Source of the DNA: an uncultured Pseudomonadales bacterium
Lineage (GTDB): Bacteria; Patescibacteriota; Microgenomatia; UBA1400; PJMF01
Direction: 5' to 3'
Assembly: GCA_964521215.1 (NCBI GenBank)
Contig: CAZFRD010000002.1
Location: 10,798-74,797 of the forward strand
DNA: 64,000 nt
Below the pieces are notes generated by a model. The model was not told the origin of the DNA, ran no database searches, and saw only the letters and a program-made list of their open reading frames with translations. Position 1 is the first letter of the stretch. Each line of letters starts with the position of its first letter. Positions 5,891 to 54,160 of the stretch are shown in pieces. The position numbers and the translations under genes are program-made.

Positions 5891-5962
5891 TGTTTCATCA
5901 TAGCATCTTGAGGGTTGGAAAAGAAGATAGCGAATTTTGTGAGGTGTGATAGTCAGAATAAA

Positions 5963-11885: not shown

Positions 11886-11918
11886 AACTATTATTATAGT
11901 ACTATGCTAGATACACAG

Positions 11919-13961: not shown

Positions 13962-14001
13962 ATGGTCAAAATCATAACATGATCAATCACCATATATAAT
14001 A

Positions 14002-20029: not shown

Positions 20030-20046
20030 GCTGCAATCTGGACGAA

Positions 20047-20283: not shown

Positions 20284-20304
20284 ATTGGAATAATGATATA
20301 CCTA

Positions 20305-20353
20305 AGTAATACCTAATGTCAACAAGTAATGATTTGTATATATAGGTATTACT
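20305..20353 (-). promoter_or_regulatory. Perfect 10-bp inverted repeat (AGTAATACCT / AGGTATTACT) bracketing a TTGACA -35 hexamer upstream of vapB; putative autoregulatory operator
   Basis: The repeat arms are at about 20305-20314 and 20344-20353. A minus-strand TTGACA lies at 20322-20317, and the vapB ATG at 20283 is about 10 nt beyond an AT-rich -10-like element. Confidence 0.35.
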
Positions 20354-22347: not shown

Positions 22348-22379
22348 ATCCTATAGTTGACAAAGGAGAATTGATATCA

Positions 22380-27057: not shown

Positions 27058-28290
27058 ATGCTCAAAAGTAAAAAGTGGGTCATCACTTCCCGACTTGTTT
27101 TTATTCTTTTACTTGCTTTGGTAATCTTTTTCAACCCAAAAACAGCTATGGCTTCGAGCTGCAGCAGTTACGCTCTAACCCACTCAAAATCAAGCAACTT
27201 TCCTTATGATGTTAGTTGCGCATCGATACCAACGAATGCAACTGTTACTGTTAATGCGGGTGGACCAAATAAATTTATCCCCAATGAAACCTACACCCTT
27301 TGGAGAGCAAAAAAGGCACAATCGTCTCAAGGTCAAAGTGTTCAGGTAGCATCTTCTCAAGCAACAAATGAAAATTCCATCACTTTTACACTATCTGATC
27401 CCGTTGCGTTTGAACCAGGGACATGGTTTTTGTCCATTTTTGGCCCTTCACTTGGCGATATTGGTGTAGGTTGCGGACTTTCTGGTTTTAGTCCAACTTA
27501 CAAAGTTGGTTTAAGAAGTTGGTCAGCAGAAATTTTTGCCTCCCAAACACGTGGTGGCAAAATGTGTTACGGTTTTCCCACCGGATGTCTAGAAGCCGGT
27601 ACACCAATCACACTGACTGTTGAAAACGTAAAACTCTGTGGCAAACCCTATGCAAATAAAAGAATTGACTTTTCTTCAGAAGGAAACAATGTGTCGAGAA
27701 ACACCGATACAAACGGTAATTTAACTGGTCAACCAATCGTGTTCACTTTTCAAAATGCCGGAAATTATGGATTTGTGGTTGGCCCATTTGAGTATAAATT
27801 CGACACTATACTTAGATCAAAATTTACTATTCGATCGTCTGGTCAGTGTGATACTTGTCTAACCACCAAACCTAAACCAATTGACCCCAACCAGCCTTAT
27901 CAATACAAAATTTGTGACCAGATTAATGGAGATTTGATGAGTCCAGAAGGAGGCAGTGCAAAAGATGCTTGTTTGCAGTGTGTTGGAGGTAATGAGTTGG
28001 GTCGGGAAGGCATTTGGACTGCTATTGGCTGTATCCCTCGTGATCCAGAGAAAATCGTCAAAAGCTTATTGCGACTGGGTTTGGGTATGGGAGGTGGTTT
28101 CGCCCTCATCATCATTTTGGCCTCGGGTTTTGTCCTAAGTGTTTCCCAGGGTGAACCTAATCGCATTAACGAAGCCAAGCAGTGGCTCACTTCTGCTCTA
28201 GTTGGTATGTTGTTTATTATTTTCTCGGTGACCCTACTTCACTTTATTGGCTATACTATTTTTAGAATACCTGGCTTTGGAGGACCTTAA
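27058..28290 (+). CDS. Pilin-like protein 1: about 330-aa Cys-containing secreted ectodomain fused to a C-terminal VirB2/TrbC-like two-helix pilin module
   Basis: The signal peptide is followed by the C-terminal module GFALIIILASGFVLSVSQGEPNRINEAKQWLTSALVGMLFIIF (helix, charged loop, helix), which is shared with the nine downstream paralogs. Confidence 0.55.
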   Translation: MLKSKKWVITSRLVFILLLALVIFFNPKTAMASSCSSYALTHSKSSNFPYDVSCASIPTNATVTVNAGGPNKFIPNETYTLWRAKKAQSSQGQSVQVASSQATNENSITFTLSDPVAFEPGTWFLSIFGPSLGDIGVGCGLSGFSPTYKVGLRSWSAEIFASQTRGGKMCYGFPTGCLEAGTPITLTVENVKLCGKPYANKRIDFSSEGNNVSRNTDTNGNLTGQPIVFTFQNAGNYGFVVGPFEYKFDTILRSKFTIRSSGQCDTCLTTKPKPIDPNQPYQYKICDQINGDLMSPEGGSAKDACLQCVGGNELGREGIWTAIGCIPRDPEKIVKSLLRLGLGMGGGFALIIILASGFVLSVSQGEPNRINEAKQWLTSALVGMLFIIFSVTLLHFIGYTIFRIPGFGGP

Positions 28291-28976
28291 TGATAATTGT
28301 TGGTAGAATTATTACTGCATTACTCGCCTGTTTCTTCTTATTTGTTGTCATTTCTCCCCAAGCTGCTTTCGCATCCTGTGGCAACATAAAAAACGACCCC
28401 CCAAACTGGGGTACAATTAAGTTTTGTGATTTCAATAACAATAATCAGGGAGAGGATCCAGTTGAGTTTTCTTTTGTAAGTTGTACAACTGGACAAGCCA
28501 ATGATGGACCGCTAGGAACCCGTTGTTGCGCTGACACTCCAGAATGTGGAGTCATCCCTAGCGTCACACCTACTCCTAGACCCCCAACACCCACAGGCGC
28601 TCCCACCCCCACCGGGCACGTGATCGATCCCATCAATCCGCCAACCGATGAATTTTTTGACCTGGTTGACCCGCTACAACATGGCGGGGGAAAAACGATT
28701 CTTGACGACGTAGCCTCACCTTTTGCCACTCAACTTAAAACACCAGGTGGCATCATTAGCCGGTTACTCTTCTTTGCTTTTCCCCTAGCTGGCTTGATCT
28801 TATTTGTCATGCTAGTCTGGGCCGGCTTTGAAATACTGATTGGCGCTCCAACCAAGAAATCAATCGATGCCGGCAAGCAAAGAGCCACCGCTGCCTTAGT
28901 GGGATTTTTTCTCTTATTTGCCAGTTACTGGATTTTCCAGATTATAGAAGTAGTATTCGGTGTTAAAATTTTATAA
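28290..28976 (+). CDS. VirB2/TrbC-like pilin paralog 2 (Cys-rich ectodomain, Pro/Thr linker)
   Basis: A signal peptide, a 6-Cys segment and a PTPRPPTPTGAPTPTG linker precede the module LVWAGFEILIGAPTKKSIDAGKQRATAALVGFFLLF. Confidence 0.55.
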   Translation: MIIVGRIITALLACFFLFVVISPQAAFASCGNIKNDPPNWGTIKFCDFNNNNQGEDPVEFSFVSCTTGQANDGPLGTRCCADTPECGVIPSVTPTPRPPTPTGAPTPTGHVIDPINPPTDEFFDLVDPLQHGGGKTILDDVASPFATQLKTPGGIISRLLFFAFPLAGLILFVMLVWAGFEILIGAPTKKSIDAGKQRATAALVGFFLLFASYWIFQIIEVVFGVKIL

Positions 28977-28982
28977 ACAAGT

Positions 28983-29546
28983 GTGCAAAAAATAATTAAG
29001 ATTATCATCAACTCCAGCTTACTCACCCTACTCTGTATTATTACAAGTTTATATTTTGTCAGTTCTGCTCAAGCTGCTTGTTCTGTCATTAGAGACACTG
29101 GAGCCGTATACTACTGTGACTACAACCATAATTTCCAGCCAGATCTAGGAGAAGGCTCTCATGTAGTTTGTACCAACAGCCCACCCAAATGTTGTAGTAC
29201 GCAAACAGAGTGCAACTTGCTCCCCAGTGGTTGTGCTCCCGGCTCTGGTTTCATTTCTCTGGGGGATTGTCTCAAACTATCTGATGATACAAAGATTAGT
29301 GACACCTACACCACTCCTGCTTTTCTGGTCAATCTGATTGTCCGCAACTTATTTGTAGTAGCCGGTGTAGTATTATTTTTCATGATTCTACTGGCTGGCT
29401 TAAAATTTATCACTGGTGGCAAAAAGGGCCTAGATGAAGCCAAGCAAATCATGACGGCTGCTTTAGTTGGCTTTTTACTGATGTTCTCGGCTTACTGGAT
29501 TGTCCAAATTGTTAAAATAGTGACCAAAACCGATCTGATTATATGA
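28983..29546 (+). CDS. VirB2/TrbC-like pilin paralog 3 (Cys-rich ectodomain)
   Basis: Signal peptide and 8 Cys, then the module LLAGLKFITGGKKGLDEAKQIMTAALVGFLLMF. Confidence 0.55.
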   Translation: MQKIIKIIINSSLLTLLCIITSLYFVSSAQAACSVIRDTGAVYYCDYNHNFQPDLGEGSHVVCTNSPPKCCSTQTECNLLPSGCAPGSGFISLGDCLKLSDDTKISDTYTTPAFLVNLIVRNLFVVAGVVLFFMILLAGLKFITGGKKGLDEAKQIMTAALVGFLLMFSAYWIVQIVKIVTKTDLII

Positions 29547-29968
29547 CCAAATTTTTTATTTCTATTGTTTTCGTCCTCGCACTGGCAATTATTTTCACTA
29601 GTAACGTCGGCGCGGTTGATAATCTTGATGCAACCATCGGTAAAATTGGTACCCCGCCTGGAGTAACAGAACAAATTGCAAATTCCGGTGTTGATCCAGA
29701 TGAAGTTGCCATTTTGTTTTTCCTCAGTTCCCTGATCAAGTTTGCCAATGTCATTGCTGGCATTTGGGTCGCTTTTAATGTAGTATTTGCCGCTTTTGAT
29801 TATTTGGGCGGACAAGGATCAGCCGAGGCTCACAAAAAAGTTCGCGAGAGAATCACCATGAGCGTGGTTGGACTATTATTACTAGTAGTGGCCTACGTGG
29901 CGACAGCCATGATCAGCTTACTTTTATTTGGCGATGCTAGTTATGTGCTCCAACCCAAGTTGGAATAA
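29543..29968 (+). CDS. VirB2/TrbC-like pilin paralog 4 (short, Cys-free)
   Basis: 141 aa. Signal peptide, then FAAFDYLGGQGSAEAHKKVRERITMSVVGLLLLVVAY. Confidence 0.55.
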   Translation: MTKFFISIVFVLALAIIFTSNVGAVDNLDATIGKIGTPPGVTEQIANSGVDPDEVAILFFLSSLIKFANVIAGIWVAFNVVFAAFDYLGGQGSAEAHKKVRERITMSVVGLLLLVVAYVATAMISLLLFGDASYVLQPKLE

Positions 29969-29977
29969 GACCAAACT

Positions 29978-30556
29978 ATGAAATTTACACATAAAATAGC
30001 TCTAGCCTTACTATTTACTTCTATGATTCATATCATAACTTTGGCTCAGATTTTTTTTGTACCAACAGCGCAAGCCTGGGATGGATCAAAATGCAGTTAT
30101 GTAGACCAATGTGTGGAGAATTACCGGTGTAAATGCCTCGGCGCTTGTACTGGAACTATAATCTGGACAAAAGGAGATCCGTGTGGCTCTGCTGTCATCG
30201 GAGGCATCAGACCACCTAACGGCGTAAGTGATTACAACCTCATTGCTATGCTTGGTGGGAGTGGTGACAACATTGGCATCTTTGCCTTTATTTCCGTCGG
30301 TTTGCGCTTATTCACAATTCTTTGTGGGCTGTTTATGTTTTTCAACTTTTTGTGGGCGGGCTATTCACTAATCACCAGAGCGGGAGACAGTAAAGCCTAT
30401 GCCGATATTCGAGAACGCTTACAATACGCCATGATTGGTTTAGTAGTGGTAGTGGCTGCCTATATGCTGGCTGCCATGATTGGACTCATCTTCTTTGGTG
30501 ACGCCACCTTTATTTTAAATCCAGACATCACTCAATACGGAGCAATTGCTCCTTAG
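29978..30556 (+). CDS. VirB2/TrbC-like pilin paralog 5 (Cys-rich ectodomain)
   Basis: Signal peptide and a CxC-rich segment, then LWAGYSLITRAGDSKAYADIRERLQYAMIGLVVVVAAY. Confidence 0.55.
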   Translation: MKFTHKIALALLFTSMIHIITLAQIFFVPTAQAWDGSKCSYVDQCVENYRCKCLGACTGTIIWTKGDPCGSAVIGGIRPPNGVSDYNLIAMLGGSGDNIGIFAFISVGLRLFTILCGLFMFFNFLWAGYSLITRAGDSKAYADIRERLQYAMIGLVVVVAAYMLAAMIGLIFFGDATFILNPDITQYGAIAP

Positions 30557-31037
30557 GTTAATCAAGAAAATTATGTATAATAGTCAAAAGAAAATGAAAA
30601 AAAGATTTGCTTTAAGTTTTGTTGTCGGTTTTCTAGTCTTGTCTTTTTTTATCCCCTCAAGCGTTTTGGCCCAATTTGGCGAAGGCATTGTGCCACCATT
30701 TGCTGAAGATAATAAATACATAAAAAGCATTACCAATGATCCGCTCAATGCCGAAGACGCTTTCACCACTTTTGAATTAATTGTGTCCAACGTGCTTGCC
30801 TTACTCACTGTCTTGGGCTCGCTGGTCTTTATCACCTATTTTATGCTCGGCGCAATCACCTGGATTACTTCGGGCGGTGATACCGCCAAGGTGGGTAAAG
30901 CCAGAGACCAAATGCTTCAAGGAGTGCTTGGTCTGATTGTTTTAACATTAATGTATGCCTTAATTGGCCTAGTGGGGAGTATTGTTGGCATTGATATTCT
31001 CAACCCGGCCAAAGTATTAGAAACTTTAGTACCATGA
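30546..31037 (+). CDS. VirB2/TrbC-like pilin paralog 6
   Basis: 163 aa. Signal peptide, then MLGAITWITSGGDTAKVGKARDQMLQGVLGLIVL. Confidence 0.55.
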   Translation: MLLRLIKKIMYNSQKKMKKRFALSFVVGFLVLSFFIPSSVLAQFGEGIVPPFAEDNKYIKSITNDPLNAEDAFTTFELIVSNVLALLTVLGSLVFITYFMLGAITWITSGGDTAKVGKARDQMLQGVLGLIVLTLMYALIGLVGSIVGIDILNPAKVLETLVP

Positions 31038-31393
31038 AAATCATTGAGTCCGCTCAAGCCGCTATTACTAACCCAGCCGTCGGCAATCTAGGTAACGATG
31101 CGGAAAAAGCTGCTGATGGTTCCTTGTTTCTTTCTCAACTTGTGCGCTATTGGAATAACATTATTAGTGTTGGCGCCCTGCTCTTATTACTTTACTTTAT
31201 TTGGGGCGCCCTAGTCTGGATCACCGCCAGTGGCGACAAAACCAAATTGGAAACGGCTCGCAACCGAATGTTGCAAGCCGCCATCGGCATGCTGATCCTC
31301 GTATCGTCATTTGTTATTATTGGCTTTGCGGGCAATTTGCTCTTTGGCGATGAATTTCAACTGCTTAATTTTAAGTTTTATACACCAGAATAA
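31034..31393 (+). CDS. VirB2/TrbC-like pilin paralog 7 (minimal, 119 aa)
   Basis: Core module IWGALVWITASGDKTKLETARNRMLQAAIGMLILV. Confidence 0.55.
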   Translation: MKIIESAQAAITNPAVGNLGNDAEKAADGSLFLSQLVRYWNNIISVGALLLLLYFIWGALVWITASGDKTKLETARNRMLQAAIGMLILVSSFVIIGFAGNLLFGDEFQLLNFKFYTPE

Positions 31394-31400
31394 CTTAATC

Positions 31401-31889
31401 ATGAAAATTTTTAAATTAAATCTAAGTAAGATGCTACAAATTATACTTTTTGTGTTTCTAATGCTTGTTATCAGCAATCAAGTAAGTTTTGCAGCCACAC
31501 CTCAACCCACAAACAGTAGCATCCAATTTAATATTGCGAAAGAAGCATATGATCAACAACTACCCACGGCCAATAGCTTTAATCCCAGCTCCAATGCTTT
31601 TAAGCAATTATTTGCGAATCTAATTGGCTCGATTTTATCTGTTGTGATTACTATCGGTGTCCTGATGTTGTTGCTCTACCTAGTCTGGGGCGCTTTTTCC
31701 TGGATCACGTCCGGAGGTGATAAAGGTAAAGTCGAGGAAGCCCGCAACCGCATGACCACCGCCGTGATTGGCATTATTGTACTCAGTTCCAGTATTGCCA
31801 TCTTTATGCTCGTGCAACAAATACTAGGTATCTGCGTGCTAGACTTTTGGGGCACAGCCTGCAGGACTCCAGCTGTTCCGGGTCCTTAA
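31401..31889 (+). CDS. VirB2/TrbC-like pilin paralog 8
   Basis: The start was moved to the internal ATG at 31401 (MKIFKLNL..., signal peptide) because the track ORF at 31311 overlaps the previous gene. Module VWGAFSWITSGGDKGKVEEARNRMTTAVIGIIVL. Confidence 0.55.
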   Translation: MKIFKLNLSKMLQIILFVFLMLVISNQVSFAATPQPTNSSIQFNIAKEAYDQQLPTANSFNPSSNAFKQLFANLIGSILSVVITIGVLMLLLYLVWGAFSWITSGGDKGKVEEARNRMTTAVIGIIVLSSSIAIFMLVQQILGICVLDFWGTACRTPAVPGP

Positions 31890-31899
31890 AAAGTCATTA

Positions 31900-31912
31900 T
31901 CTGGTATAATAC
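31900..31912 (+). promoter_or_regulatory. Extended -10 promoter element (TGGTATAAT) upstream of pilin paralog 9
   Basis: ctgGTATAATacc lies about 70 nt upstream of the ATG at 31982. An AAGGGA SD-like element lies 8 nt before the start codon. Confidence 0.4.
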
Positions 31913-31981
31913 CACTAGCATCTTTACAAATAAGTAAATATCGCGTTATAGTAGTAAAAGTACTTAACCAAAGGGATATAT

Positions 31982-32389
31982 ATGAAAAACACCTTGACCA
32001 AGATTGTTGCCGGCGCTGGCTCAGCGGGCACCGCTTTATTTTTGATGGCTTCCAATGCTATGGCTGCCGTATCAATTGGCACCGTTAACACTCCAGAAGG
32101 TGGCTATGCTTCAAACCTTGGTGGCGTTATTAATAGCTTGCTCACCATCGTTATGGCATTAGCTGCTCTAGCTGTGTTTATTTATCTCATCTGGGGTGCT
32201 TTTGAATGGATTACTTCCGGAGGTGATAAAGGTAAAACCGAATCAGCTCGCAATAAGATTACGGCAGCTGTAATTGGCTTAATTGTGCTCGCCGCTTCCT
32301 ATGCCATCTTAATGTTGCTCCTGCAGATTTTAGGATTCACTAGTTTAGAGGGTGCTTTTACTCAAATCAAACCTCTTAACTCCAAATAA
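31982..32389 (+). CDS. VirB2/TrbC-like pilin paralog 9
   Basis: 135 aa. Signal peptide, then IWGAFEWITSGGDKGKTESARNKITAAVIGLIVL. Confidence 0.55.
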   Translation: MKNTLTKIVAGAGSAGTALFLMASNAMAAVSIGTVNTPEGGYASNLGGVINSLLTIVMALAALAVFIYLIWGAFEWITSGGDKGKTESARNKITAAVIGLIVLAASYAILMLLLQILGFTSLEGAFTQIKPLNSK

Positions 32390-32412
32390 ATACTATCAAG
32401 ATAGTAATTTTA

Positions 32413-32439
32413 ACAGCCCGGCGGATGCCGGGCTGTTTT
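32413..32439 (+). terminator. Rho-independent terminator after pilin paralog 9
   Basis: A 9-bp GC-rich stem (CAGCCCGGC), GGAT loop and complementary arm (GCCGGGCTG), followed by TTTTG. Confidence 0.7.
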
Positions 32440-32441
32440 GT

Positions 32442-32489
32442 AGTAGTACCAATGTCTGCTTCGACAAGCTCAGCCTGACATTGGTACTA
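32442..32489. repeat. Long hairpin (14-bp perfect stem, 20-nt loop)
   Basis: GTAGTACCAATGTC ... GACATTGGTACTAC, located immediately after the terminator. Confidence 0.6.
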
Positions 32490-32495
32490 CACTAG

Positions 32496-32645
32496 TGTCA
32501 CCCCGAGCCTGTCGAGGGGTGTCATACTGAGCCCGTCGAAGCATGTCACACTGAGCCCGTCGAAGTGTGAGCCCGTCGAAGCATGTCACTCTGAGCCTGA
32601 CGAAGAGTGTCACTCTGAGGGGTGTCACTCTGAGCCTGTCGAAGA
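32496..32645. repeat. Imperfect tandem direct repeats, about 24-nt unit (TGTCACNCTGAGCCYGTCGAAGNN), about 6 copies
   Basis: Visible as gtcaccccgagcctgtcgagggg / tgtcatactgagcccgtcgaagca / tgtcacactgagcccgtcgaagtg / (tgagcccgtcgaagca) / tgtcactctgagcctgacgaagag / (tgtcactctgagggg) / tgtcactctgagcctgtcgaagag. The array sits between pilin paralogs 9 and 10 and runs into the start of paralog 10. Confidence 0.7.
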
Positions 32646-33107
32646 GTGACCCCACCATGTAGTATACTTACCAGTATCATGAATTCGCTCAGGCATCGTT
32701 TCGTCATCCCGCCGTTACTCATCACGTTTTTGATTTTCAGCTTAATTCTTCCCCCTCAGGCCCAAGCCCAAACCGTCGAATGGTCTGGCGTTTGCATGGC
32801 TGGCTCGTCTGGCGGGGTCCCCACTATTCAGGGTCTTGAGTGCTTAATCGCCAATGTCTTTACCGTTATTATTACCCTTATCGGTCTGGGTGGGTTTGTG
32901 ATGTTTATCATCGGTGCATTCTTATGGATGACCGCCGGTTCTAACCCCAAAAACATCGATTCAGCCAAAAAAACTTTCACCTACGCCGTGCTCGGTATGG
33001 TCTTAGCTCTCAGCGCCTTTATTATCATTAACTTGATTGCCGATTTTACCGGCGTGAGTGTAATTAAGACTTTTAGAATTCCAACTTCTTCAACAGACTG
33101 GAATTAA
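32646..33107 (+). CDS. VirB2/TrbC-like pilin paralog 10 (GTG start)
   Basis: Signal peptide ...PPQAQAQ and 2 Cys, then IGAFLWMTAGSNPKNIDSAKKTFTYAVLGMVLAL. Confidence 0.5.
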   Translation: MTPPCSILTSIMNSLRHRFVIPPLLITFLIFSLILPPQAQAQTVEWSGVCMAGSSGGVPTIQGLECLIANVFTVIITLIGLGGFVMFIIGAFLWMTAGSNPKNIDSAKKTFTYAVLGMVLALSAFIIINLIADFTGVSVIKTFRIPTSSTDWN

Positions 33108-37874: not shown

Positions 37875-37995
37875 ATCACTCCTTTTTCAAATGAACATTA
37901 ATATGCTAGGGCAGGGAAACAACCTCATCATATCACCATCTCTGACTATCAAACAAGCACAAATTCACTCGATTGCTCATCCGAAGATTAATCTA

Positions 37996-38001
37996 TATAA
38001 T
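37996..38001 (+). promoter_or_regulatory. -10 hexamer TATAAT 10 nt upstream of the ATG at 38012
   Basis: atcTATATAATagacaccgctATG. Confidence 0.4.
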
Positions 38002-38011
38002 AGACACCGCT

Positions 38012-39760
38012 ATGAAATTAACCGCTCAGGTGGTCAAGTTGTGTTTGGTTGTTTTAGTGAGCGGTTTGCTTTTTACTTCTACCCTTGCTTTTGCCGGAGT
38101 AATTAGCGCACAAGATTCCAGTTCCAGTACCCCCAGTGAAGTCGACATCACTGCAGATGAATTAGCCGACTACCGTCTAGCCACAGCCGATTGTTCCACG
38201 CCATCGCTAGAATGTTTGGTCCGTAACGTTTCACGTTTTACTGCTATTGAGTGGGTGCAGGATATTATTGGCAAAGATAATAAGATCTGTATCGAGGAAG
38301 AAGGATGCACGGATCTAAGCAGTAATAATTCCGGCACCAATGTGGCAGATACTGGAGCCATCGGCAGTTTGTCTAACTTAATTACTGCCATGTATACCCA
38401 CCCCGTGGCAGACACCCAGACGTATGTGGCGTACGTGCTCAAATCTGCTCATATTACCGCTCCCGCCTACGCCCAGGGACTTGGGTTCTCTTCGCTTGAT
38501 CCAGTGCTCAATTTATGGACCACCTTTCGCAATATTGCCTACATGTTTTTTGTGCTGATTTTTGTAGTGGTGGGCTTCCTAATTATGTTCCGCCAAAAAG
38601 TCGGCCAGACGGCCATTACTGCCCAACAAGCGATTCCGCAAATCATTATTTCTCTAATTCTGGTTACTTTTTCCTACGCCATTGCTGGTTTGTTGATTGA
38701 TTTGATGTATGTGTTGATGGCACTAATCATTGGTGTTTTCTCTTCATTTTTTAGCGATGATGTTTTTGGCTATAACATTTTTCAGTTGGGAGGCAAGTTG
38801 TTCGAGGGTGCTGCAGATTTTTATCGCAACAAGGATTTTATTTCTGGCTTTTTAACAGGTCTTGATATCAATGGGGCTGCCAACCAAGTAGTCAGTTTAA
38901 TAAGCAGTTTGACGCTGATGATTATTCTAACGATAGCGATGTTGATTGGAATTGTGAGGTTGTTTTTCGAGCTACTAAAGTCATATGCCACTATTGTCAT
39001 CTCCGTAGTAGTAGCACCACTATTGCTGATGATGGGAGCTATTCCTGGTAGAAGCAATGCTTTTGGTTCATGGATCAAAACCCTAGTTGGCCACCTCTCA
39101 CCGTTCCCCGTAATCTTGATGGTGTTGGTGATGTTTTATGCTTTTACAGAAGGCGCAGTTAATGCTAGTAGTGGCGGTTTTATGCCACCATTTTTGCTCA
39201 ATGCCGGTAATGGTATTGGTGAAAGTATTATTGCGCTCATGAGTTTGGCCATTATTTTGGCTCTACCAGATATTGTGATAAAAATCAGAGATGGCATAGC
39301 GCCAAAGGATGCTTTTGGAGAACTGATAACTAACAAGGGCTGGAGTAACTTCAAAGATGGTTGGACGGGCAAGACCCCTTGGGGTAAAATGCCATTGGGA
39401 ATGAGTGGAAGGAATATTTCTAAGTTGGGTGTGGGTGCCACTACGGCTGGGGTAGGCGCAATTGGTGGTGCAGGAATTGGATTTGTTAAAGGAGGGGGAA
39501 CCATGAAAGAACGTCTCGGAAGAGCTGGTCAGTATGCTGGAGCTGGTGCGATTGGTGGCGCCATAGCACCTATCGCAATTCCCAAAGTGCCGAGATTGGT
39601 AAAAGGAATTGTAAAAGAAACTATGGGTAGTGCAGTTAGCTACACCGTTGGAGATGTTGTTGAAGAAAAGTTAGATCAGTTCAAAGCATACAGAGAAGAC
39701 AAAAAAGCTCAAAAGGGTGGAAATCGGAAGAGCGACGCTGCAGGTCTAGACAGAAACTAA
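38012..39760 (+). CDS. VirB6/TrbL-like polytopic membrane protein (T4SS channel component candidate)
   Basis: The start was moved to the ATG at 38012 (MKLTAQVV..., signal peptide). A ~170-aa Cys-containing extracytoplasmic domain is followed by at least 6 TM helices and a Gly-rich charged C-terminal tail. The topology and size are typical of VirB6/TrbL/PrgH-like proteins, but there is no sequence-motif proof. Confidence 0.45.
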   Translation: MKLTAQVVKLCLVVLVSGLLFTSTLAFAGVISAQDSSSSTPSEVDITADELADYRLATADCSTPSLECLVRNVSRFTAIEWVQDIIGKDNKICIEEEGCTDLSSNNSGTNVADTGAIGSLSNLITAMYTHPVADTQTYVAYVLKSAHITAPAYAQGLGFSSLDPVLNLWTTFRNIAYMFFVLIFVVVGFLIMFRQKVGQTAITAQQAIPQIIISLILVTFSYAIAGLLIDLMYVLMALIIGVFSSFFSDDVFGYNIFQLGGKLFEGAADFYRNKDFISGFLTGLDINGAANQVVSLISSLTLMIILTIAMLIGIVRLFFELLKSYATIVISVVVAPLLLMMGAIPGRSNAFGSWIKTLVGHLSPFPVILMVLVMFYAFTEGAVNASSGGFMPPFLLNAGNGIGESIIALMSLAIILALPDIVIKIRDGIAPKDAFGELITNKGWSNFKDGWTGKTPWGKMPLGMSGRNISKLGVGATTAGVGAIGGAGIGFVKGGGTMKERLGRAGQYAGAGAIGGAIAPIAIPKVPRLVKGIVKETMGSAVSYTVGDVVEEKLDQFKAYREDKKAQKGGNRKSDAAGLDRN

Positions 39761-42800: not shown

Positions 42801-43093
42801 AGCGCAACCCGGTCATTAACTTGAACGACTTCTTCAGGTTCAATTTCATCTTGAGTTGCGTGACTTTTTTGGTAATCAGATTGAGTAATACCAAATTTTT
42901 CAAGCAGCACTATTTTAAAAGATTCTGGAATATTTTTCGATTTATCGAGCCCACGAAGCATCTCGATAAGTTCATTTCTGAGCTTTTCCACTGGCTCAGT
43001 ATCTAATGATTTTGTTGCACGCACTAAGGCTTGCGAAAATTCTGCCAGCGAATACACACTACCACCTGATATCTCTCCTCTTGGTTCAGTCAT
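39881..43093 (-). CDS. Large soluble protein of unknown function (1070 aa)
   Basis: Long alpha-helical, charged sequence with no TM segment, Walker motif or HUH/relaxase motif recognised. It is transcribed opposite to the surrounding T4SS genes. Confidence 0.4.
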   Translation of the reverse strand: MTEPRGEISGGSVYSLAEFSQALVRATKSLDTEPVEKLRNELIEMLRGLDKSKNIPESFKIVLLEKFGITQSDYQKSHATQDEIEPEEVVQVNDRVALELAPNLIEEKIIAADMLVRKWIQDSMTLPSTQNELEILVEEAEQIESALELLVAQAFSDKDAHLEATRLKNSWSDIAGSRLKRIQKAIGRLQELVIPSAKENGLDTIISGVQRSIDDLEKKLVDTNFDPTIPLPEYTGNNALEVIRNTRVSFERAIRVLSGSTINEERLSAEELKDHVGSRLDKLELGLVTRVFEQWKSNLEKTTPSLQMLRVITEQARQAISLGSPNFLHISQIETQLDSNKTLLASKVSGKIYEDYLSQKYWIPAQKCLDELKQIKLETGQVLEFTKWKTDVNQLAVFIDSIIDTGGNSLVTTKSYANAVILSQGLEARSSSIAHLIENPSPNPQIEKARLELLKRKQKADALLKERIDTAGKEEWEKQPEIIALTKIIREVRAIDIAKNIAPHCGTTGATCYDTAMLESGTLANPGFKLRLTDAHNLVISQNLLDNSKKFPQSKSVGSAISGLNTNYGEATRHLDQCIRRSKEQPEVVSREWFEAKILKIEETYAGFKDTINVGEYNAMIAMRDKLSSLVAQGKIAQAEVDYISTMISARKELNDVYRMVESTQDIMIETIRQNEVDLRSSQLGHLFRHKKVGAAWRIMDRIMTGQEPALPDVDSSTLTADRDRVIKFVTSQTDPASAMIAYRLYRSLFRASELDILNAAVIKDQVREVIHFSEFRRKYKGKDAESGPQITLTGYFDYNDQRGVAGHAKPVIYVLPPGKRDRLDTRWDLFPGFFHHCYEGTVYTVNKDGVEYKRKMTTNLDAKGNIIDFMSYRNAQGELMVENMPWDNIEEDALATWYRQMKNTAHFIKGELIKTGLNSSEYSQVSTYQRLTNTLTYLHPFIYGLRDQMNEAVVLGERAKSARASGNAKLADDLSKLAKEANLKAKEIQFDFQYMYLLGLIHHNFQVAELSVALKRSQVRDILRVAVKAGFITGEHSKKINKEIDKMQRLIEESLLNASERSRKELFDI

Positions 43094-43172: not shown

Positions 43173-44228
43173 ATGAGTGAAAATGAGTACAACCCCGAAA
43201 ACGATGCTAGTGCTGGTTTCACCTCAGCGATGGAGGCTGGCAATGGAGCTGCAACAAAAACGGTGCCCGAAGTTGGTGATGGTCAAGCACAATTGAACGC
43301 AACGAACTCAGGCACGATTCAAGAAGATTCGACCCAAGAGTCAATAAGCATTAACGCCACACTTACAGAACAAATGCCAGCTTACCTCAATGCCCTAGAG
43401 GAACAGCTCGAAATTGGCGAAGATGTCTGGAACTATGAAAAAGCAGATGAATTAATTAAGCACATTGCCCCTAATAACGAAGTTCGTGAAGAAATACGAC
43501 GAAACCACCCCTCACTAGAAGAGAAATTGCTTGTTCTAGAGGAACAAAACGAAAAGGCTAGGCTTAAGAGACAAAATACATTACTATCCGAGCTAGCTAT
43601 GGAGGAGGAATTATCCCAAGCGGTTCAAGGCATAGACCTTGAAAGCAGTGGAGTAGATCAAGTACTGGTTGATGATTTGAAACCTGTTGAAAACGAAAAA
43701 ATATTTATCGATCTGGATGAAGATGGGAACGAAGGGGATGCGACCGGTACAATTAGGACGGAGCGAGAGGAGCATTCAATTGGTTCAAAAGCATTATTTG
43801 TGTTGTTGGTTCTGTATGATATTACCCAAGGTGGTCAGAGCTTGCGTGTAGCAGCAAGAACGGGTCAAGAACCTTTATTAGAGTTGATAGGGATCAATCC
43901 AGATAGGGCTAAAAGAATTATAGAAAAATCAAGAGCTCAAGAAAAACTCTTGTTCTCGCTATCTCCTGTTCGGCTTAAGGATTTCTTTGAAACAAAAATA
44001 AAAAGAGGTTACCGACAAGAAATCGTAACCTTTTTAGCTGGAATTTCTAGGGAGACTCGCGTCGATTTACTTAGTGGACGAGAGGTTCTTCCGAGAGGAC
44101 TAGGGCGATACTCTCATCTTCTTGATCAGGCTCAAATTCAACAGATCCTTGGTGCTTTAAAACCAGAAGATATTGACAGACTAGATCTGAATGACGTAGT
44201 CGCCCAACGACAACCAAATACAACATAG
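43173..44228 (+). CDS. Acidic hypothetical protein (351 aa)
   Basis: Glu/Asp-rich ORF transcribed divergently from the 1070-aa gene. No recognisable motif. Confidence 0.35.
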   Translation: MSENEYNPENDASAGFTSAMEAGNGAATKTVPEVGDGQAQLNATNSGTIQEDSTQESISINATLTEQMPAYLNALEEQLEIGEDVWNYEKADELIKHIAPNNEVREEIRRNHPSLEEKLLVLEEQNEKARLKRQNTLLSELAMEEELSQAVQGIDLESSGVDQVLVDDLKPVENEKIFIDLDEDGNEGDATGTIRTEREEHSIGSKALFVLLVLYDITQGGQSLRVAARTGQEPLLELIGINPDRAKRIIEKSRAQEKLLFSLSPVRLKDFFETKIKRGYRQEIVTFLAGISRETRVDLLSGREVLPRGLGRYSHLLDQAQIQQILGALKPEDIDRLDLNDVVAQRQPNTT

Positions 44229-44329
44229 TTTTTGTAGAAATTGCTCGTCCCAATTTAATATTGAATAGTGCAATTATTATCTGACTCGCTATACTAGAAA
44301 CTAGTATTAATCCAAATTAGGTTCTGTCT

Positions 44330-44824
44330 ATGGGAGATATCTTAACACCAACGCCAGATGATGTACTCAGAGAGGGACCCAAGTTCAGAAACGACAGAGT
44401 TACTTCTGTAGCCTATAAGCTAAATCGAGGTGCTGAAGTCACACTAAGTGAGCTCACCACCTTTTTAGAATCTCTTGCGCCTCCAAGCAACGAAGGTTTG
44501 CCATATTATGTCAAGAAAGTTGCAGATGGTGTTGCGAAAGAGAGAAAGATTAAGTTATTCCCCATATTATGGGGTGACTCATCAAAAATCATGGTTGGCT
44601 ATATACCAAATTCAGAACAACCCAACCAAGACAGCTTCTTTGACTTAAATAGCGTTAAGTTGGTTTGTGAGTTCGAACTTGGGAATGCTGGAGACTTCAA
44701 CCAAAAATCGCCATCTACTGAAGAGATTAGGCAAAAAATTGAGGCGTTTTTTGAAAAGCAAGATATGCATCGATCAATTAGAGACACCATTGATGCAATT
44801 CAAAAACAATTTACTGGTTTGTAG
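44330..44824 (+). CDS. Hypothetical protein (164 aa)
   Basis: ORF with an AGGT-type spacing before the ATG. No motif recognised. Confidence 0.35.
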   Translation: MGDILTPTPDDVLREGPKFRNDRVTSVAYKLNRGAEVTLSELTTFLESLAPPSNEGLPYYVKKVADGVAKERKIKLFPILWGDSSKIMVGYIPNSEQPNQDSFFDLNSVKLVCEFELGNAGDFNQKSPSTEEIRQKIEAFFEKQDMHRSIRDTIDAIQKQFTGL

Positions 44825-44915: not shown

Positions 44916-47900
44916 ATGGCGGATGATTCCTCTGAAAAAACTATTAGCCAACCAAAGAGGTTGGTCTCCGGCTTTGCCCTTAATAACCTTGCTCACAGAC
45001 AGTGGCTGGCGGTTTTTTTGGCTGGACTGCAAGAGGCGCTATTTAAAGAAAACAAACTAGTAGAAAACCTCAAAATACCAGTTTGGTTTGGTTCTAAACC
45101 CTCGTGGGTCATCTTAACCACCACCGACGCAAAGAGAGATCTCGACGATCCCGCTCGAGACGAGAAGTCTTTATTTCCCACCGACATCGTTTACCTAATA
45201 GTCGATCTGGCCATAAGACTTGATGTTCCCCGCAAAGAGATTGAATATTATCTATCGAACGCCACTAGAGATGGGGACCTGTTCATAGAATCCACTGTTT
45301 TAGACACTCAAACTATCACTGAACTGAAAACACTTGTTGACGAAATCGGTAAGAAATTAGAGTTGGTAACAAAACAAGAGGACAAACAGAAAGAAGAGGA
45401 GGCTCCACCGACATTGGAAAAAGGTCCAGCTGAAGCTGTCAAACCTGTTGCCCCACCCCAAAAGGGGGTTACAACCGCAGGGGTTAAACCCACCCCAACC
45501 GAAGGTGGAGATCAAGCTGAAACACAAGTTGAACTACCCGGAGCAGTCGCGGCCTCGACAGTCATAAGCGCTCAAGCCGCCGCCCGAACCAAGAGATATG
45601 AGTTTGCCTGGATCTACAACCATTTTTTGTTCGACCTGACAGGCAAATATGGCATTGAGCCAAGTGATGAGTTGAGGGCACAACTCCAAGGAATTGTTTC
45701 AGAGCATCTGGGCACTATTTCTCCAGATGAAATGGCTAGTTTTTTTGCCAATCCCACTGCGCGTTTAAGAGCGATTCAAGCTATTTACCAAAAACTTAAC
45801 CTTCAAGATGACTTTAAGCAAAAGCTCAGTAATCAATATGACACTTACCTGCTAACTGCCACTGATTCACAAAAACAACAATTCCTACAAAGCAACAACT
45901 TCGCAAATGGCGGGTTGAAGATAATCGAAAACTTACAGAATTTTCAATTAGAAAATAATCAGTCGGGAGTGATCAAACAAGCCGAGACAACGCTGGCTGG
46001 TCTCACTGGTACGGCCATTGACGGCCCAACGGCTTTAAACTTTGAACGAGCCATCGAGGCATTAGCTCTCACTATGGGTTCCAAAACCGTGGCAACAGAC
46101 TTGGGACTGAGTTACCCAGAAAATAAGGCAGACCTGGAGACCTTCATTAAGAAGCTCAGCGCCAAACAGATAGCCCAGATCTTTTTCCCCAACCCCAATA
46201 AGCCAGATGAAGTAGATGACAAGATACTGTTAGCTATTGAGCAAAATCTTAGCTCAATTCAAAATCTACTTACCGCTACTCTGCTGGCAACTTCGCTGGA
46301 AAAACTAGCCACCGCACCGAATGAGTTAAAAAAACTTGTCGGCATAGCAGTCTTTACTGACGATGATCTTAAAGGCGACCAGACCGCAATCGAATCTGCA
46401 ATCGTCAGTGTGCGAACGCTTACCGGCGCGATGCCGGTTACTGGCAAAGACGACGACGTAACTCCTGCAATTACCACCAGCCACACCCAGCAGCTAATGG
46501 AACAATACCAAAAGCGGGTGCAAAAAATTTGGGCGTCTTTGGAAGAAGAGTCTCAACTGCGGGCTTACTACGCCCTATTTGGACTAACTGAGGATCCTGC
46601 CAACCACCAAGTTTTGTTGGATAAAGTCCAGCACCTTAGAATACCGGGTAGCAACAAATTACCCTGGAATCCTAATTTGATCAACTTGATCAATTGGGAA
46701 GATTTCTTAAGAAAAGATTACAAAGAAAACCAAAGGGTCGCGGCTCTTCGCGCCAAAGCCGCCGAGGGCTTTACCAAAAACCTCAGTCAGCTCCAACTTG
46801 AACAACTGCAAATCAGCCACTTACTTAACGAACTAGAAAACGGCGTGGTCTATGCCGAGGGCGTTGCTCACAAAATCAACCAAAACGAAGATATTGTTGA
46901 TCTTGAATTCCGCTCGGTACTAAACACACTAGACTTAGTCACCACTCGTTTGGACTTACTTAAAAGTCGAAAATTGGCTGAAGATGATGAAAAATTCAAT
47001 GTTGCATTAAACGAAAGAGTTGACAACCTTTCCGGTCGCTGTACGACAGTTTTATCCACCCTAGCTGGCTATAACCGCTTGGCGGGCCTACTGCAGAATT
47101 ATCAAAATCTCACCTTGGTTGAAACCTATCAACTATCGCTTGAGTACGAAATTCCCGAAATTTTACTCTACCAAGTTGGGGATATTACTCAACCGGGTTT
47201 TAATCAGCAAGCTGAGTTGTCCGACAGAGTCACAGCCGATAACTTACTTGATGACCCTTCCTCAATGTCGCTCGGCCAACTCAATGCTGCTGCGAGAAAG
47301 AGCAACGAGCTACATCCTAGTCGACTCGATCAAATTAACCTTGCCAACCAAAACAATCAGGCGCTTAATGATCTAAAAAACATAGTTGGTGGAGTGGGAG
47401 AAATAGCTGCTCAGTCAAAAGGCAACTGGGTAGCTGCGGCCGGTCTGGGTATTAAGAAATACCTCACCGACAAGGAATTTCGCCAAAGCATCAACCGGAC
47501 AGCTAAAAGATACGCAAAAAAAATAGCCTTGTTAGGTGGAATTGTTGTTGGAGGTGGAGTAGCAATCGGATTGCTTCTTAGACATTTGCTAGGAATGGCT
47601 GGACAGTGGGGCGGGATGCTTGGAGGAGCGTTGGCTGGCGGCACCGTTGGAGCGGCACTTGGACCACTTGGAGTAATATTGGGAGCGGGAATTGGGGGAT
47701 ATTTAGGATATAACGTTGGAGCCAAAGCCGCCGCCCTCAATGCTTCATCTGGGGCGGAATTGCTATCACCCAGTAGTTCAGCCGCCCAACCGATTTTCCA
47801 AGAAGAAGTCCTTTCGTCCTCACCCGCCACTTTTCAATCTGCCACTAGTGGCACTGGCATGGAAGCTACCACCCCAGCTGCCGCCACAGCTTCCCCCGTT

Positions 47901-49046
47901 GCTTCTTCTGCCGCCACCTCCGTTGCCACCCAAGCTCCTTTTCTTGGCAGTCTGGCTGGCATCCCAGTCTTAGCCTTAATCCCCGCCCTATCAATGCTGT
48001 CGCTGGCTGGGATCACGCTTTACACTTTGTTTGTAATTTTTTCCGCTTTCCTCGCCCCTCTACCCGTGGGCAACCTCGGTGGTGTCAACACCACTAAATC
48101 TGAATATGCGGTGCTGACAAAACTGGCATCACCGGGGTCACTATCAAACAACACGACCGCCAACGTCAACTACAAAATTATCTTGCAACCTAGAAGGAAT
48201 TATTCGCTCAAAGTAACCGCTGTGACCGATAGCGCCAACACTGGCTTCAACTTTCAATCTAATCGCTCAGGCAAAATTAATCCCCAAGTTTCACCACCCG
48301 CCAGCTTGCTCAATCCTCGTATTTCTTTGGCAGACTTTTCTCCCGATTTTTTTGGTCAGACCCAACTAAAAGAATATAGTGTCACCTTCTCTGGGGGCAA
48401 GGACGTGCTGGTTAGTAACGTGATAAAAATTACCTACGATGTCCAGGATGCTCAAGGCAATTCCATTGCCACTAACCAAACGATTGACGCCATCGCCAAT
48501 GTGTCCATTGGCGACCATGGCGTATTTTGCTGGCCCACAACGGGAGAAATAATCCAGTTGCCAGGGGGCAGTTTTTCACACAATAACTCTGACGCATTTG
48601 ATATTTCAGCTCCAAAAACCAACAAGGTCTACACCCCATTTGCTGGCTGGGCTCAAAAGGGCGATATGGGTAATAGTGATTATGGCAAATACGTAGTAGT
48701 TGACTCATATGTGCAAGGAAGGTGGATCAGAATTATTTACGCTCACTTAAGTAGCGCTGCGGTGGGTACTCCCACAGCCCACACGTGGCTTAATATAGCC
48801 TACAACCATGACGACAACCAAGCGAACAACATTGGTCAACAAGTTGGCGCTGGTCAACTAATTGGCGCAGTCGGCTCCACTGGCAACTCTACAGGACCAC
48901 ACCTTCATTATGAGCTCATATATATTAACGGCAGAAGACATACTTTCGGAAGTGGATTCAGCCTTATTAACTTAGTGCCTCCAAGACCTGCGGGGGGCAA
49001 ATACAGAGTAGGAGATTATGTTAAAACCTGTTATCCATTTAATTAA
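44916..49046 (+). CDS. Giant bitopic protein with C-terminal peptidase M23 (LytM) domain; PrgK/VirB1-like peptidoglycan hydrolase candidate
   Basis: 1376 aa. The first ~870 aa are helical and soluble. Two Gly-rich hydrophobic segments follow (IALLGGIVVGGGVAIGLLL...GALAGGTVGAALGPLGVILGAGIGGYLGY), then an Ala/Ser/Thr-rich linker. The C-terminus carries the M23 motifs (GDHGVF..., AVGSTGNSTGPHLHYELI). A TATAAT lies 7 nt before the ATG. Confidence 0.75.
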   Translation: MADDSSEKTISQPKRLVSGFALNNLAHRQWLAVFLAGLQEALFKENKLVENLKIPVWFGSKPSWVILTTTDAKRDLDDPARDEKSLFPTDIVYLIVDLAIRLDVPRKEIEYYLSNATRDGDLFIESTVLDTQTITELKTLVDEIGKKLELVTKQEDKQKEEEAPPTLEKGPAEAVKPVAPPQKGVTTAGVKPTPTEGGDQAETQVELPGAVAASTVISAQAAARTKRYEFAWIYNHFLFDLTGKYGIEPSDELRAQLQGIVSEHLGTISPDEMASFFANPTARLRAIQAIYQKLNLQDDFKQKLSNQYDTYLLTATDSQKQQFLQSNNFANGGLKIIENLQNFQLENNQSGVIKQAETTLAGLTGTAIDGPTALNFERAIEALALTMGSKTVATDLGLSYPENKADLETFIKKLSAKQIAQIFFPNPNKPDEVDDKILLAIEQNLSSIQNLLTATLLATSLEKLATAPNELKKLVGIAVFTDDDLKGDQTAIESAIVSVRTLTGAMPVTGKDDDVTPAITTSHTQQLMEQYQKRVQKIWASLEEESQLRAYYALFGLTEDPANHQVLLDKVQHLRIPGSNKLPWNPNLINLINWEDFLRKDYKENQRVAALRAKAAEGFTKNLSQLQLEQLQISHLLNELENGVVYAEGVAHKINQNEDIVDLEFRSVLNTLDLVTTRLDLLKSRKLAEDDEKFNVALNERVDNLSGRCTTVLSTLAGYNRLAGLLQNYQNLTLVETYQLSLEYEIPEILLYQVGDITQPGFNQQAELSDRVTADNLLDDPSSMSLGQLNAAARKSNELHPSRLDQINLANQNNQALNDLKNIVGGVGEIAAQSKGNWVAAAGLGIKKYLTDKEFRQSINRTAKRYAKKIALLGGIVVGGGVAIGLLLRHLLGMAGQWGGMLGGALAGGTVGAALGPLGVILGAGIGGYLGYNVGAKAAALNASSGAELLSPSSSAAQPIFQEEVLSSSPATFQSATSGTGMEATTPAAATASPVASSAATSVATQAPFLGSLAGIPVLALIPALSMLSLAGITLYTLFVIFSAFLAPLPVGNLGGVNTTKSEYAVLTKLASPGSLSNNTTANVNYKIILQPRRNYSLKVTAVTDSANTGFNFQSNRSGKINPQVSPPASLLNPRISLADFSPDFFGQTQLKEYSVTFSGGKDVLVSNVIKITYDVQDAQGNSIATNQTIDAIANVSIGDHGVFCWPTTGEIIQLPGGSFSHNNSDAFDISAPKTNKVYTPFAGWAQKGDMGNSDYGKYVVVDSYVQGRWIRIIYAHLSSAAVGTPTAHTWLNIAYNHDDNQANNIGQQVGAGQLIGAVGSTGNSTGPHLHYELIYINGRRHTFGSGFSLINLVPPRPAGGKYRVGDYVKTCYPFN

Positions 49047-54079: not shown

Positions 54080-54160
54080 GGCTATTTATCAGTGTATTTT
54101 TCCCCTTGCAGAGTGTGGGAAACTTTGTGTATAACTTCCAAGTATATTTGGGGTGGAAAT

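Follow-up and report, generated by a model that had tools for sequence, protein, structure and literature searches.

Genetic organization of the giant M23 gene

The 64,000-nucleotide (nt) stretch analyzed here, referred to as the window, is part of contig CAZFRD010000002.1 (assembly GCA_964521215.1, positions 10,798 to 74,797) from an uncultured, ultra-small bacterium of the patescibacterial lineage Microgenomatia. It includes a gene that the list of open reading frames (ORFs) and its translation define as a single ATG-to-stop ORF of 1376 amino acids (aa), coding for a giant membrane protein that ends in a peptidase domain of the M23 family. The gene belongs to a plus-strand run coding for proteins of 351 and 164 aa, the giant M23 protein, a 326-aa protein, PrgI, TrsD and VirB4, with intergenic distances between −29 and 101 nt. 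The locus is chromosomal, and virB4 is followed by dnaA and then by dnaN, yidC and jag. The type IV secretion systems (T4SSs) of Patescibacteria are known to include an MPF-FATA-like VirB4, TrsD, PrgI and pilin arrays, to have no relaxase, and to be located next to dnaA/dnaN (PMC12102498, PMC10633639); judged by its gene content the locus matches this published type. An original prediction, made before any database search, had described the giant protein as a bitopic, PrgK-like protein that mirrors the VirB1-analog hydrolases of monoderm T4SSs. The coordinates of the gene, the segments of its product and the neighboring genes are shown in Table 1.

Table 1. Coordinates of the giant M23 gene, of the segments of its product and of neighboring genes of the T4SS locus. 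Positions are those of the window.
Feature	Position	Strand	Basis
Whole gene, giant membrane M23 protein	44916..49046	+	ORF; full-length homologs; start "MAD..." conserved in relatives
N-terminal alpha/beta domain, aa 11-162	44946..45401	+	AlphaFold2 (AF2) predicted local distance difference test (pLDDT) 80-93; no known family
Disordered Ala/Pro/Thr-rich linker, aa 163-215	45402..45560	+	AF2 pLDDT below 50; composition; holds VTTAGVKP
All-helical region, presumed cytoplasmic, aa 216-866	45561..47513	+	AF2 helices, pLDDT mostly 70-88
Hydrophobic block 1, aa 867-934: first transmembrane segment, TM1 (870-888), and glycine-zipper segment (897-932)	47514..47717	+	Kyte-Doolittle and Hessa-scale scans
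Ser/Ala/Thr linker, nearly uncharged, aa 935-1006	47718..47933	+	Composition A 26%, S 20%, T 11%; pLDDT below 50
Hydrophobic block 2, aa 1007-1050 (44 aa)	47934..48065	+	Hydrophobicity scans, AF2, family conservation
Ig-like beta-sandwich spacer domain, aa 1051-1200 (fold ~1059-1198, ~140 aa)	48066..48515	+	AF2 all-beta, pLDDT ~90
M23/LytM peptidase domain, aa 1201-1376	48516..49043	+	Pfam, PDB sequence matches, Foldseek, residue conservation
Seven VirB2-like T4SS pilin genes	28290..33107	+	PF18895: five above gathering score, two just below
1274-aa protein, N-terminal hydrophobic segment (likely signal peptide)	33156-36980	+	No family match
595-aa polytopic membrane protein, VirB6-like candidate by position and topology only	37973..39760	+	Roughly 7-8 hydrophobic segments
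1070-aa protein	39881-43093	-	No family match
351-aa and 164-aa proteins	43173-44824	+	No family match
326-aa protein, one N-terminal membrane segment	49018..49998	+	29-nt overlap with giant gene; syntenic in all relatives
PrgI (VirB3-like) fused to C-terminal CarboxypepD_reg beta-sandwich, 400 aa	50053..51255	+	Pfam PrgI 29.5 bits, CarboxypepD_reg 39.7 bits
TrsD-like protein, resembles VirB4 N-terminus, 290 aa	51307..52179	+	NCBIfam TrsD and VirB4_plasma N-part matches
VirB4 ATPase, CD1110 family, 632 aa	52181..54079	+	NCBIfam 389.5 bits vs cutoff 325; Pfam P-loop_TraG, AAA_10

A word-indexed search identified six full-length homologs of 1372-1532 aa with 45-100% identity to the giant M23 protein, and a profile of aa 185-866 compared to 1.84 billion representative proteins recovered 20 proteins, of which 18 have lengths of 1287-1752 aa. 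The whole architecture is common to the homologs in both size ranges, and because of this, and of the conserved synteny described below, an assembly fusion or a chance ORF can be ruled out. Peptidase_M23 is carried by 17 of the 19 family members scanned with Pfam, and the relatives are labelled Candidatus Woesebacteria. The word-indexed searches returned only six matches when the full protein was used and only one with a 15-sequence N-terminal profile, low-complexity words having probably saturated the candidate list in both cases.

In one related locus on a Logan contig (L005, positions 745-4363) the homologous giant gene is frameshifted into ORFs of 816 and 399 aa, an assembly error or a pseudogene being the possible causes. 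The two ORFs were rejected as separate proteins as the frame continues through the glycine-zipper segment in the +1 frame. They represent a frameshift within one gene and are therefore no evidence for separately existing halves.

The M23 peptidase domain

The C-terminal domain scored 55.9 bits against Peptidase_M23 (PF01551), for which the curated cutoff is 28.7, and its sequence matches in the PDB are M23 enzymes. The AF2 model of the C-terminal part, with a pLDDT of 86 and a predicted template-modeling score of 0.74, was matched by Foldseek to DipM, EnpA, LytM and lysostaphin with E values of 4e-6 to 7e-4 and template-modeling scores of 0.60-0.74 (on target). These results, together with the string GSTGNSTGPHLHYE at aa 1320-1333, bear out the LytM/M23 domain of the original prediction, which had called it canonical; this last qualifier fails only for the first His, which lies outside the HxxxD register. 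In an alignment of 45 sequences, of which 22 are ordinary M23 proteins, residues D1229, H1277, H1329 and H1331 occupy the catalytic positions and are invariant; within the family, 17-18 of 18 members have them. For the HxH motif (H1329, H1331) and the central His H1277 the family counts are 17/17 and 18/18. The atypical feature is the HxxxD register, where the first position is occupied by S1225. A His conserved in the family (H1222, 17/18) is located 7 residues before D1229, a distance that reaches up to ~20 residues in relatives with loop insertions. The string HNNSD, which was considered as a canonical HxxxD, is coincidental, its Asp (D1226) being present in no more than 13/18 relatives. 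A long His-Asp spacing is found in active M23A enzymes, LasA being one example. As a rule, degenerate LytM factors have lost the catalytic or metal residues. Judging from its residues, the M23 domain is likely to be catalytically active.

When compared to LytM, lysostaphin, EnpA and ShyA (M23B), the domain has the same fold and HxH motif as well as their central catalytic His and the Asp that binds zinc. Unlike in these proteins, the presumed first His ligand is shifted by at least 3 residues and lies on a variable loop, the domain has an extra C-terminal extension with a Cys predicted to pair with the Cys at the start of the domain (CWP...TC), and it is fused to a giant membrane protein. NCBIfam produced weak partial matches to ShyA, ShyC, MepM and DipM that were far below the cutoffs and covered the HxH region only. 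No hydrolase domain other than M23 was detected in the giant protein with Pfam or NCBIfam, in agreement with the earlier claim that M23 is the only one. The beta-sandwich that precedes the M23 domain showed weak Foldseek matches to CARDB and Ig-like domains and no Pfam match.

Membrane segments and topology

Hydrophobic block 1 includes two Gly-rich hydrophobic segments at aa ~868-890 and ~897-932; 32% of the residues between aa 867 and 934 are Gly, and they form 11 overlapping GxxxG motifs. One relative matches the Pfam models Gly-zipper_Omp and Gly-zipper_YMGG. A hydrophobic stretch of this type, 20-68 aa long and mostly 55-68, is present throughout the family, and the Ser/Ala/Thr linker varies in length between 40 and 137 aa. 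Both the glycine-zipper-rich segments and the linker had been recognized in the original prediction, and both were confirmed. What had been overlooked, besides the beta-sandwich, is a third hydrophobic segment, block 2, which consists of a Pro-rich hydrophobic lead (1007-1027) followed by a transmembrane helix (1028-1046) and ends in the conserved sequence IFSAFLxPLP. In the AF2 C-terminal model it is a single helix (1018-1045) with pLDDT above 80. Because of this additional block the description as bitopic is wrong, and the protein appears to be polytopic. With only the two segments first recognized and the N-terminus inside, the M23 domain would have been cytoplasmic. The order found in the whole family is a Lys/Arg-rich stretch, a hydrophobic block, an uncharged linker, a hydrophobic block of ~33-60 aa, and the beta-sandwich plus M23.

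A hydropathy scan of the giant M23 protein revealed no signal peptide at the N-terminus. The region that precedes the membrane segments most likely resides in the cytoplasm because the 29 residues preceding TM1, at the juxtamembrane end of the helical region, include 8 Lys/Arg. The positive-inside analysis is informative for this segment only, the other loops being nearly uncharged, and simple hydrophobicity leaves open the side of the membrane on which the M23 domain is found, with only aa 870-888 and 1028-1046 clearly insertion-competent. The distribution of Cys favors the outside. The protein has only three Cys in all (709, 1205 and 1372), of which the two on either side of the M23 domain, C1205 and C1372, are invariant. 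Many relatives hold exactly these two, and in related T4SS-linked giant proteins nearly all Cys are located after the membrane blocks, a pattern that would fit a disulfide-stapled ectodomain. We infer a topology with the N-terminus inside, three transmembrane segments (a hairpin formed by block 1 and a single pass by block 2) and the C-terminus outside.

Conservation across relatives and virB4 loci

The gene order giant M23 protein, ~320-aa protein, PrgI, TrsD, VirB4 and dnaA recurs in three related loci (L001, L007 and L008), where the giant protein is 75%, ~37% and ~33% identical to that of the window; synteny is kept down to 23-37% identity. L005 has the same order up to VirB4, and its contig ends in an unannotated 469-aa ORF. 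VirB4 is 79-82% identical to the window protein in L005, L007 and L008, and the identities in relatives are 64-68% for TrsD, 54-56% for DnaA, 37-44% for PrgI, 34-39% for DnaN, 33-43% for the M23 part and ~26% for the helical part of the giant protein, and 20-27% for the 326-aa protein. The T4SS ATPase VirB4 is far more conserved than the adjacent DnaA and DnaN, which would imply either extreme constraint or a recent exchange of virB4/trsD alone.

A VirB4 profile scan of metagenome contigs yielded 80 loci, 20 of which, with a VirB4 identity of 77% or more and an upstream sequence of 9.3 kb or more, were surveyed. A plus-strand ORF of at least 1100 aa was found at the equivalent place in 19 of them; one locus is without the gene. 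The giant ORF ends in M23 in 11 of the 19 loci, and in four others (L012, L028, L032 and L038) the beta-sandwich is kept and is followed by a shared, unrecognized end domain (…N[VI][FY]G… tails). Among the loci with VirB4 identities of 59-68%, one (L070) has an upstream 1054-aa protein, at 3144-6308, that ends in Amidase_2, and nine with identities of 62-67% (L048, L049, L050, L053, L064, L068, L071, L078 and L084) include an M23-ending membrane protein of 758-950 aa directly downstream of virB4, at about 11800-14700 or the equivalent position. This second arrangement resembles that of prgJ-prgK in pCF10. A large membrane protein with a swappable hydrolase domain (M23, amidase or unknown) can thus be considered a near-constant neighbor of virB4, and the presence of such a domain at a fixed place in the cluster would fit a role in opening the wall.

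The N-terminal part

The ~870 residues preceding the membrane segments had been described as helical, which holds for the AF2 helices that run from 211 to ~850 and not for the alpha/beta domain (aa 11-162) and the disordered linker that precede them. The VTTAGVKP motif of the linker is invariant in six close homologs, and the conserved core of the helical region encompasses aa ~225-560 (YExAWxYNH, LFANPxxRL, KIWxxLxxExQ). No match to the N-terminal part was found in Pfam, NCBIfam, PHROG or PDB sequences, a model of aa 1-1060 had no Foldseek fold match, and in tblastn and plasmid searches of phage and plasmid collections only the M23 part produced matches.

This region is 16-26% identical, or unrecognizable, between genomes with VirB4 proteins that are ~80% identical, and HMMER did not detect N-terminal homology in any of the 80 VirB4 loci. 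Comparison of profiles with hhalign linked the N-terminal part to its positional equivalent in L011 (probability 96%, 16% identity over 274 columns); there was a weak hint only for the N-terminal part of L005, and nothing was found for L048 and L070. Because the region diverges this fast next to a hyper-conserved VirB4, a tight docking to the ATPase, which the original prediction had considered along with a scaffold role, seems weakly disfavored, and this divergence leaves room for a possible role at the host interface or in setting a length. The ~870-aa N-terminal part is the truly unexplained piece of the protein and may bear on host engagement by these machines.

Other genes of the T4SS locus and of the window

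The 326-aa protein was considered as a relative of VirB8/PrgL and rejected, as there was no signal against PrgL or the PDB. The fusion of PrgI to CarboxypepD_reg recurs in relatives. TrsD is a known component of Patescibacteria T4SSs (PMC12102498), and the counterparts of the TrsD-like ORF in relatives are TraC-like. What could be taken as a split VirB4 is this separate TrsD-like ORF ending one base before VirB4, and the split is conserved in all relatives. The pilin array includes two further ORFs without matches (28983-29968). The 595-aa polytopic protein has no Pfam or PHROG match, and size-matched counterparts of the unmatched large proteins of the locus flank the giant gene in L001, L007 and L008. 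A scan of 57 window ORFs revealed no relaxase domain. A PilB-like T2SSE ATPase (971-2668, minus strand) is located beside a 780-aa protein with a TrwB/VirD4-type coupling-protein domain (2716-5058, minus strand), ~40 kb from the T4SS module, a distance that fits the separation of t4cp and virB4 reported in Patescibacteria. A 586-aa SpoIID-domain protein (25221-26981, minus strand) is encoded ~1.3 kb upstream of the pilin array, with an unannotated 410-aa ORF (27058-28290) in between. SpoIID is a lytic transglycosylase family, and the protein could supply glycan cleavage alongside the M23 peptidase.

The dnaA gene begins 12 nt past the virB4 stop (54080-54092), which leaves no room for the usual dnaA promoter or DnaA-box region, and it may be cotranscribed with the T4SS operon. 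The replication origin is probably located within the dnaA-dnaN or dnaN-yidC gaps, because these noncoding gaps are larger (222 and 392 nt, respectively). A scan of the region between 39.5 and 57.5 kb for promoters and terminators gave counts at or below the shuffled expectation and was thus uninformative, and tRNA and Rfam scans found nothing within the 64-kb window. Other genes of the window code for an ATP-dependent (archaeal/eukaryotic-type) DNA ligase, two PIN-domain proteins, a Fic protein and a 979-aa DUF4012 protein (17771-19615 and 19637-22775, minus strand; 59051-61990, plus strand). The gene for the DUF4012 protein is downstream of the origin genes and is syntenic in many related loci.

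Proposed function and alternative explanations

The giant M23 protein is probably a dedicated cell-wall hydrolase of a chromosomal Patescibacteria-type (MPF-FATA-like) T4SS/pilus system. Its dedication to the T4SS is suggested because of its fixed place in the cluster, the swappable hydrolase domain, and the precedent of an M23 protein in a Gram-positive conjugation locus, described below. The ~866-aa N-terminal part would stay in the cytoplasm, and the protein would be anchored in the membrane by a helical hairpin with the glycine zipper (aa ~870-932) and by one more transmembrane helix, the third, at aa ~1028-1046, with the Ser/Ala/Thr loop on the inner side of the membrane. Outside the membrane, the Ig-like beta-sandwich would hold a disulfide-stapled M23 zinc endopeptidase, which would cut the peptide cross-links of the cell's own peptidoglycan locally so that the T4SS channel and a VirB2-type pilus could pass the wall. 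This opening of the wall is the job of VirB1, PrgK, TraG and CwlT elsewhere, and the combination of a membrane anchor and a peptidoglycan-hydrolase domain follows the logic of the Gram-positive VirB1 analogs (PMC12857230).

Several observations weigh against this proposal. No homology to a characterized T4SS hydrolase was found; the hhalign probability of the family profile against PrgK was 0.25%, a weak test, as the template was a single sequence and neither TraG nor CwlT was compared. A simple hydrolase would not need a cytoplasmic part of ~870 aa, which is left unexplained. Some positional equivalents are without a recognizable hydrolase domain, and four of the 19 (L024, L026, L037 and L040) are without any detectable C-terminal domain. 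The AF2 prediction of the membrane region has low confidence. Since the Hessa-scale sum leaves only aa 870-888 and 1028-1046 clearly insertion-competent, the parity of the crossings depends on the glycine zipper spanning the membrane, and the M23 domain would be cytoplasmic if it does not. This outcome, or an inverted topology, would make an annotation as wall hydrolase misleading, and the lack of a clear positive-inside signal after TM1 would agree with it. We consider it very improbable, given that an invariant Cys pair in an almost Cys-free protein and the C-terminally confined Cys of related proteins point to an oxidizing, extracytoplasmic location, that the substrates of M23 enzymes are extracellular, and that aa 890-936 (47 aa after R888/H889) are uncharged and long enough for a second membrane pass. 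Also unfavorable are the replacement of the first His of HxxxD (Asp minus 4) by S1225 and the fact that the best structural match in Foldseek is DipM, a non-catalytic LytM factor. Together with the regulatory nature of the LytM domain of PrgK itself (PMC12857230) and the presence of the SpoIID-domain protein at the edge of the locus, these two features could indicate that the M23 domain is catalytically inactive and acts, like those of PrgK, DipM, EnvC or NlpD, as a regulator or wall-binding module that activates or positions another hydrolase, e.g., the SpoIID-domain protein, or tethers the machine. We regard this possibility as unlikely, as M23 is the only recognizable hydrolase in the conserved five-gene module. 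Moreover, four of the five canonical catalytic or metal residues, which degenerate LytM domains usually lose, are strictly conserved and the fifth, a His, is conserved nearby, and LasA-type enzymes are active despite their long His-Asp spacing.

Two other explanations accept an active peptidase and assign it a different task. A housekeeping endopeptidase for growth or division, of the MepM/ShyA kind and merely located beside T4SS genes near the replication origin, would account for the chromosomal position adjoining dnaA and for the NCBIfam matches to ShyA, ShyC, MepM and DipM, but those matches are far below the cutoffs and restricted to the HxH region, the position within the T4SS module is kept at 23-37% giant-protein identity and in 19/20 related loci, and a comparable M23 membrane protein directly follows virB4 in other lineages, so that of all the explanations considered here this is the most improbable. 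The target could also be a host: the T4SS/pilus would deliver or display the giant protein or just its C-terminal part, which would insert its zipper into the host membrane and digest the host wall. The order of the parts of the giant protein matches that of the phage T5 tape-measure protein pb2 (PMC10038345), tape-measure PHROG families match the M23 part, and glycine zippers occur in membrane-inserting proteins. A relative of the giant protein matches Gly-zipper_Omp/Gly-zipper_YMGG, and there is a weak match to SlyB. The very fast divergence of the N-terminal part next to a VirB4 conserved at ~80% is typical of host-interface or length-constrained proteins, and the T4SSs of Patescibacteria, in which relaxases are absent, are believed to support an epibiotic way of life (PMC12102498, PMC10633639). 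On the other hand, there is no tape-measure similarity in sequence or fold outside the M23 domain, three hydrophobic blocks after a Lys/Arg-rich stretch resemble an ordinary resident membrane anchor, there is no known secretion signal for these systems, and the gene order resembles that of structural T4SS operons; delivery to a host is therefore decidedly unlikely. An extension of this idea, in which the giant protein would be the business end of an epibiont T4SS that works in a tape-measure-like manner, pushing the glycine-zipper segments and M23 into the host envelope to build a feeding or attachment conduit, with the hypervariable ~870-aa part setting the reach or the host specificity, is offered as a speculation that we consider quite improbable.

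Comparison with known systems

The predicted arrangement of the protein can be likened to that of PrgK (Enterococcus faecalis pCF10), TraG (pIP501) and CwlT (ICEBs1), with an N-terminal cytoplasmic part, a membrane anchor and extracellular wall-hydrolase domains. PrgK belongs to the DELTA class of the VirB1-like hydrolases of Gram-positive T4SSs, which are classified as ALPHA, BETA and DELTA, and its gene, as is the case for the giant gene, is part of a T4SS operon near PrgI/VirB4. PrgK also holds a LytM-type domain, which is regulatory (PMC12857230), unlike the M23 domain described here, in which the catalytic-type residues are kept. The two proteins differ in other respects: in PrgK the cytoplasmic part is Lys-rich with 245 aa and there is one transmembrane segment, while the giant protein has ~866 aa (~3.5x) and at least three membrane segments; PrgK has muramidase and CHAP domains (Phage_lysozyme2 and CHAP in the same scan), while M23 is the sole hydrolase domain of the giant protein; and prgK is downstream of virB4, while the giant gene is upstream. 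Unlike PrgK, TraG and CwlT, the giant protein is without glycosidase (SLT/muramidase) and CHAP or NlpC/P60 domains, and this, with the hhalign result mentioned above, argues against a membership in the PrgK family. The more general claim that the protein mirrors the VirB1-analog hydrolases of monoderm bacteria stands as regards a T4SS cluster (PrgI, TrsD-like protein, CD1110 VirB4 and VirB2-like array) that is kept in relatives and the combination of a membrane part with a C-terminal hydrolase, and fails as regards homology to PrgK. The original prediction was thus right in spirit, that of a T4SS wall hydrolase, and wrong on family membership and on the bitopic nature; by analogy, the giant M23 protein is most likely a functional analog of VirB1/PrgK rather than a member of that family.

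Among plasmid proteins, the one that best matches the M23 domain, with 36% identity over aa 1202-1341, is WP_309559687.1 from plasmid pC of Peribacillus sp. R9-11. This protein is annotated as a "lysozyme family protein", has a C-terminal M23 domain, and is encoded in a Tcp-type conjugation locus, where its gene is located after those for a VirB4-like ATPase and a large membrane protein. Unlike the giant protein, it has only 357 aa, includes a lysozyme domain and is without the giant N-terminal part.

Phage T5 pb2, with a long helical region, a ~46-residue hydrophobic stretch in which two transmembrane helices are possible, and a C-terminal muralytic metallopeptidase (PMC10038345), resembles the giant M23 protein in the order of its parts, but beyond the M23 domain the two are similar neither in sequence nor in fold. 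As a component of the virion, pb2 is expelled into the envelope of the host, and nothing observed for the giant protein indicates translocation. Homology to tape-measure proteins was rejected, as PHROG, phage and plasmid searches matched the M23 part only and the neighboring genes belong to the T4SS or to replication. A tblastn search against phages produced matches only to aa ~1163-1369, and in a Foldseek search against viral models (BFVD) the best E value was 0.058 with a template-modeling score below 0.1.

With the published T4SSs of Patescibacteria (Quinonero-Coronel et al. 2025, PMC12102498; Wang et al. 2023, PMC10633639) the locus shares the MPF-FATA-related type of VirB4, TrsD, PrgI, the VirB2 array and the adjacency to dnaA/dnaN; a giant M23 membrane protein is absent from their descriptions. 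This T4SS is essential for epibiotic growth in one tested species (PMC10633639), and in Southlakia epibionticum a peptidase and a lysozyme homolog next to virB4 are essential (PMC12102498, PMC10633639). It seems to be no conjugation machine, and surveys mostly failed to find its wall hydrolase: VirB1 homologs are rarely linked to virB4 outside Paceibacteria, pilus biogenesis has been inferred to be perhaps independent of VirB1, and other hydrolases have been proposed in the role of VirB1 for these loci (PMC12102498). The giant M23 protein is a testable candidate for the missing wall hydrolase in a Microgenomatia-like lineage. While the wall hydrolase of a T4SS is a known theme, a giant membrane protein with a large inner domain that carries the M23 peptidase is new.

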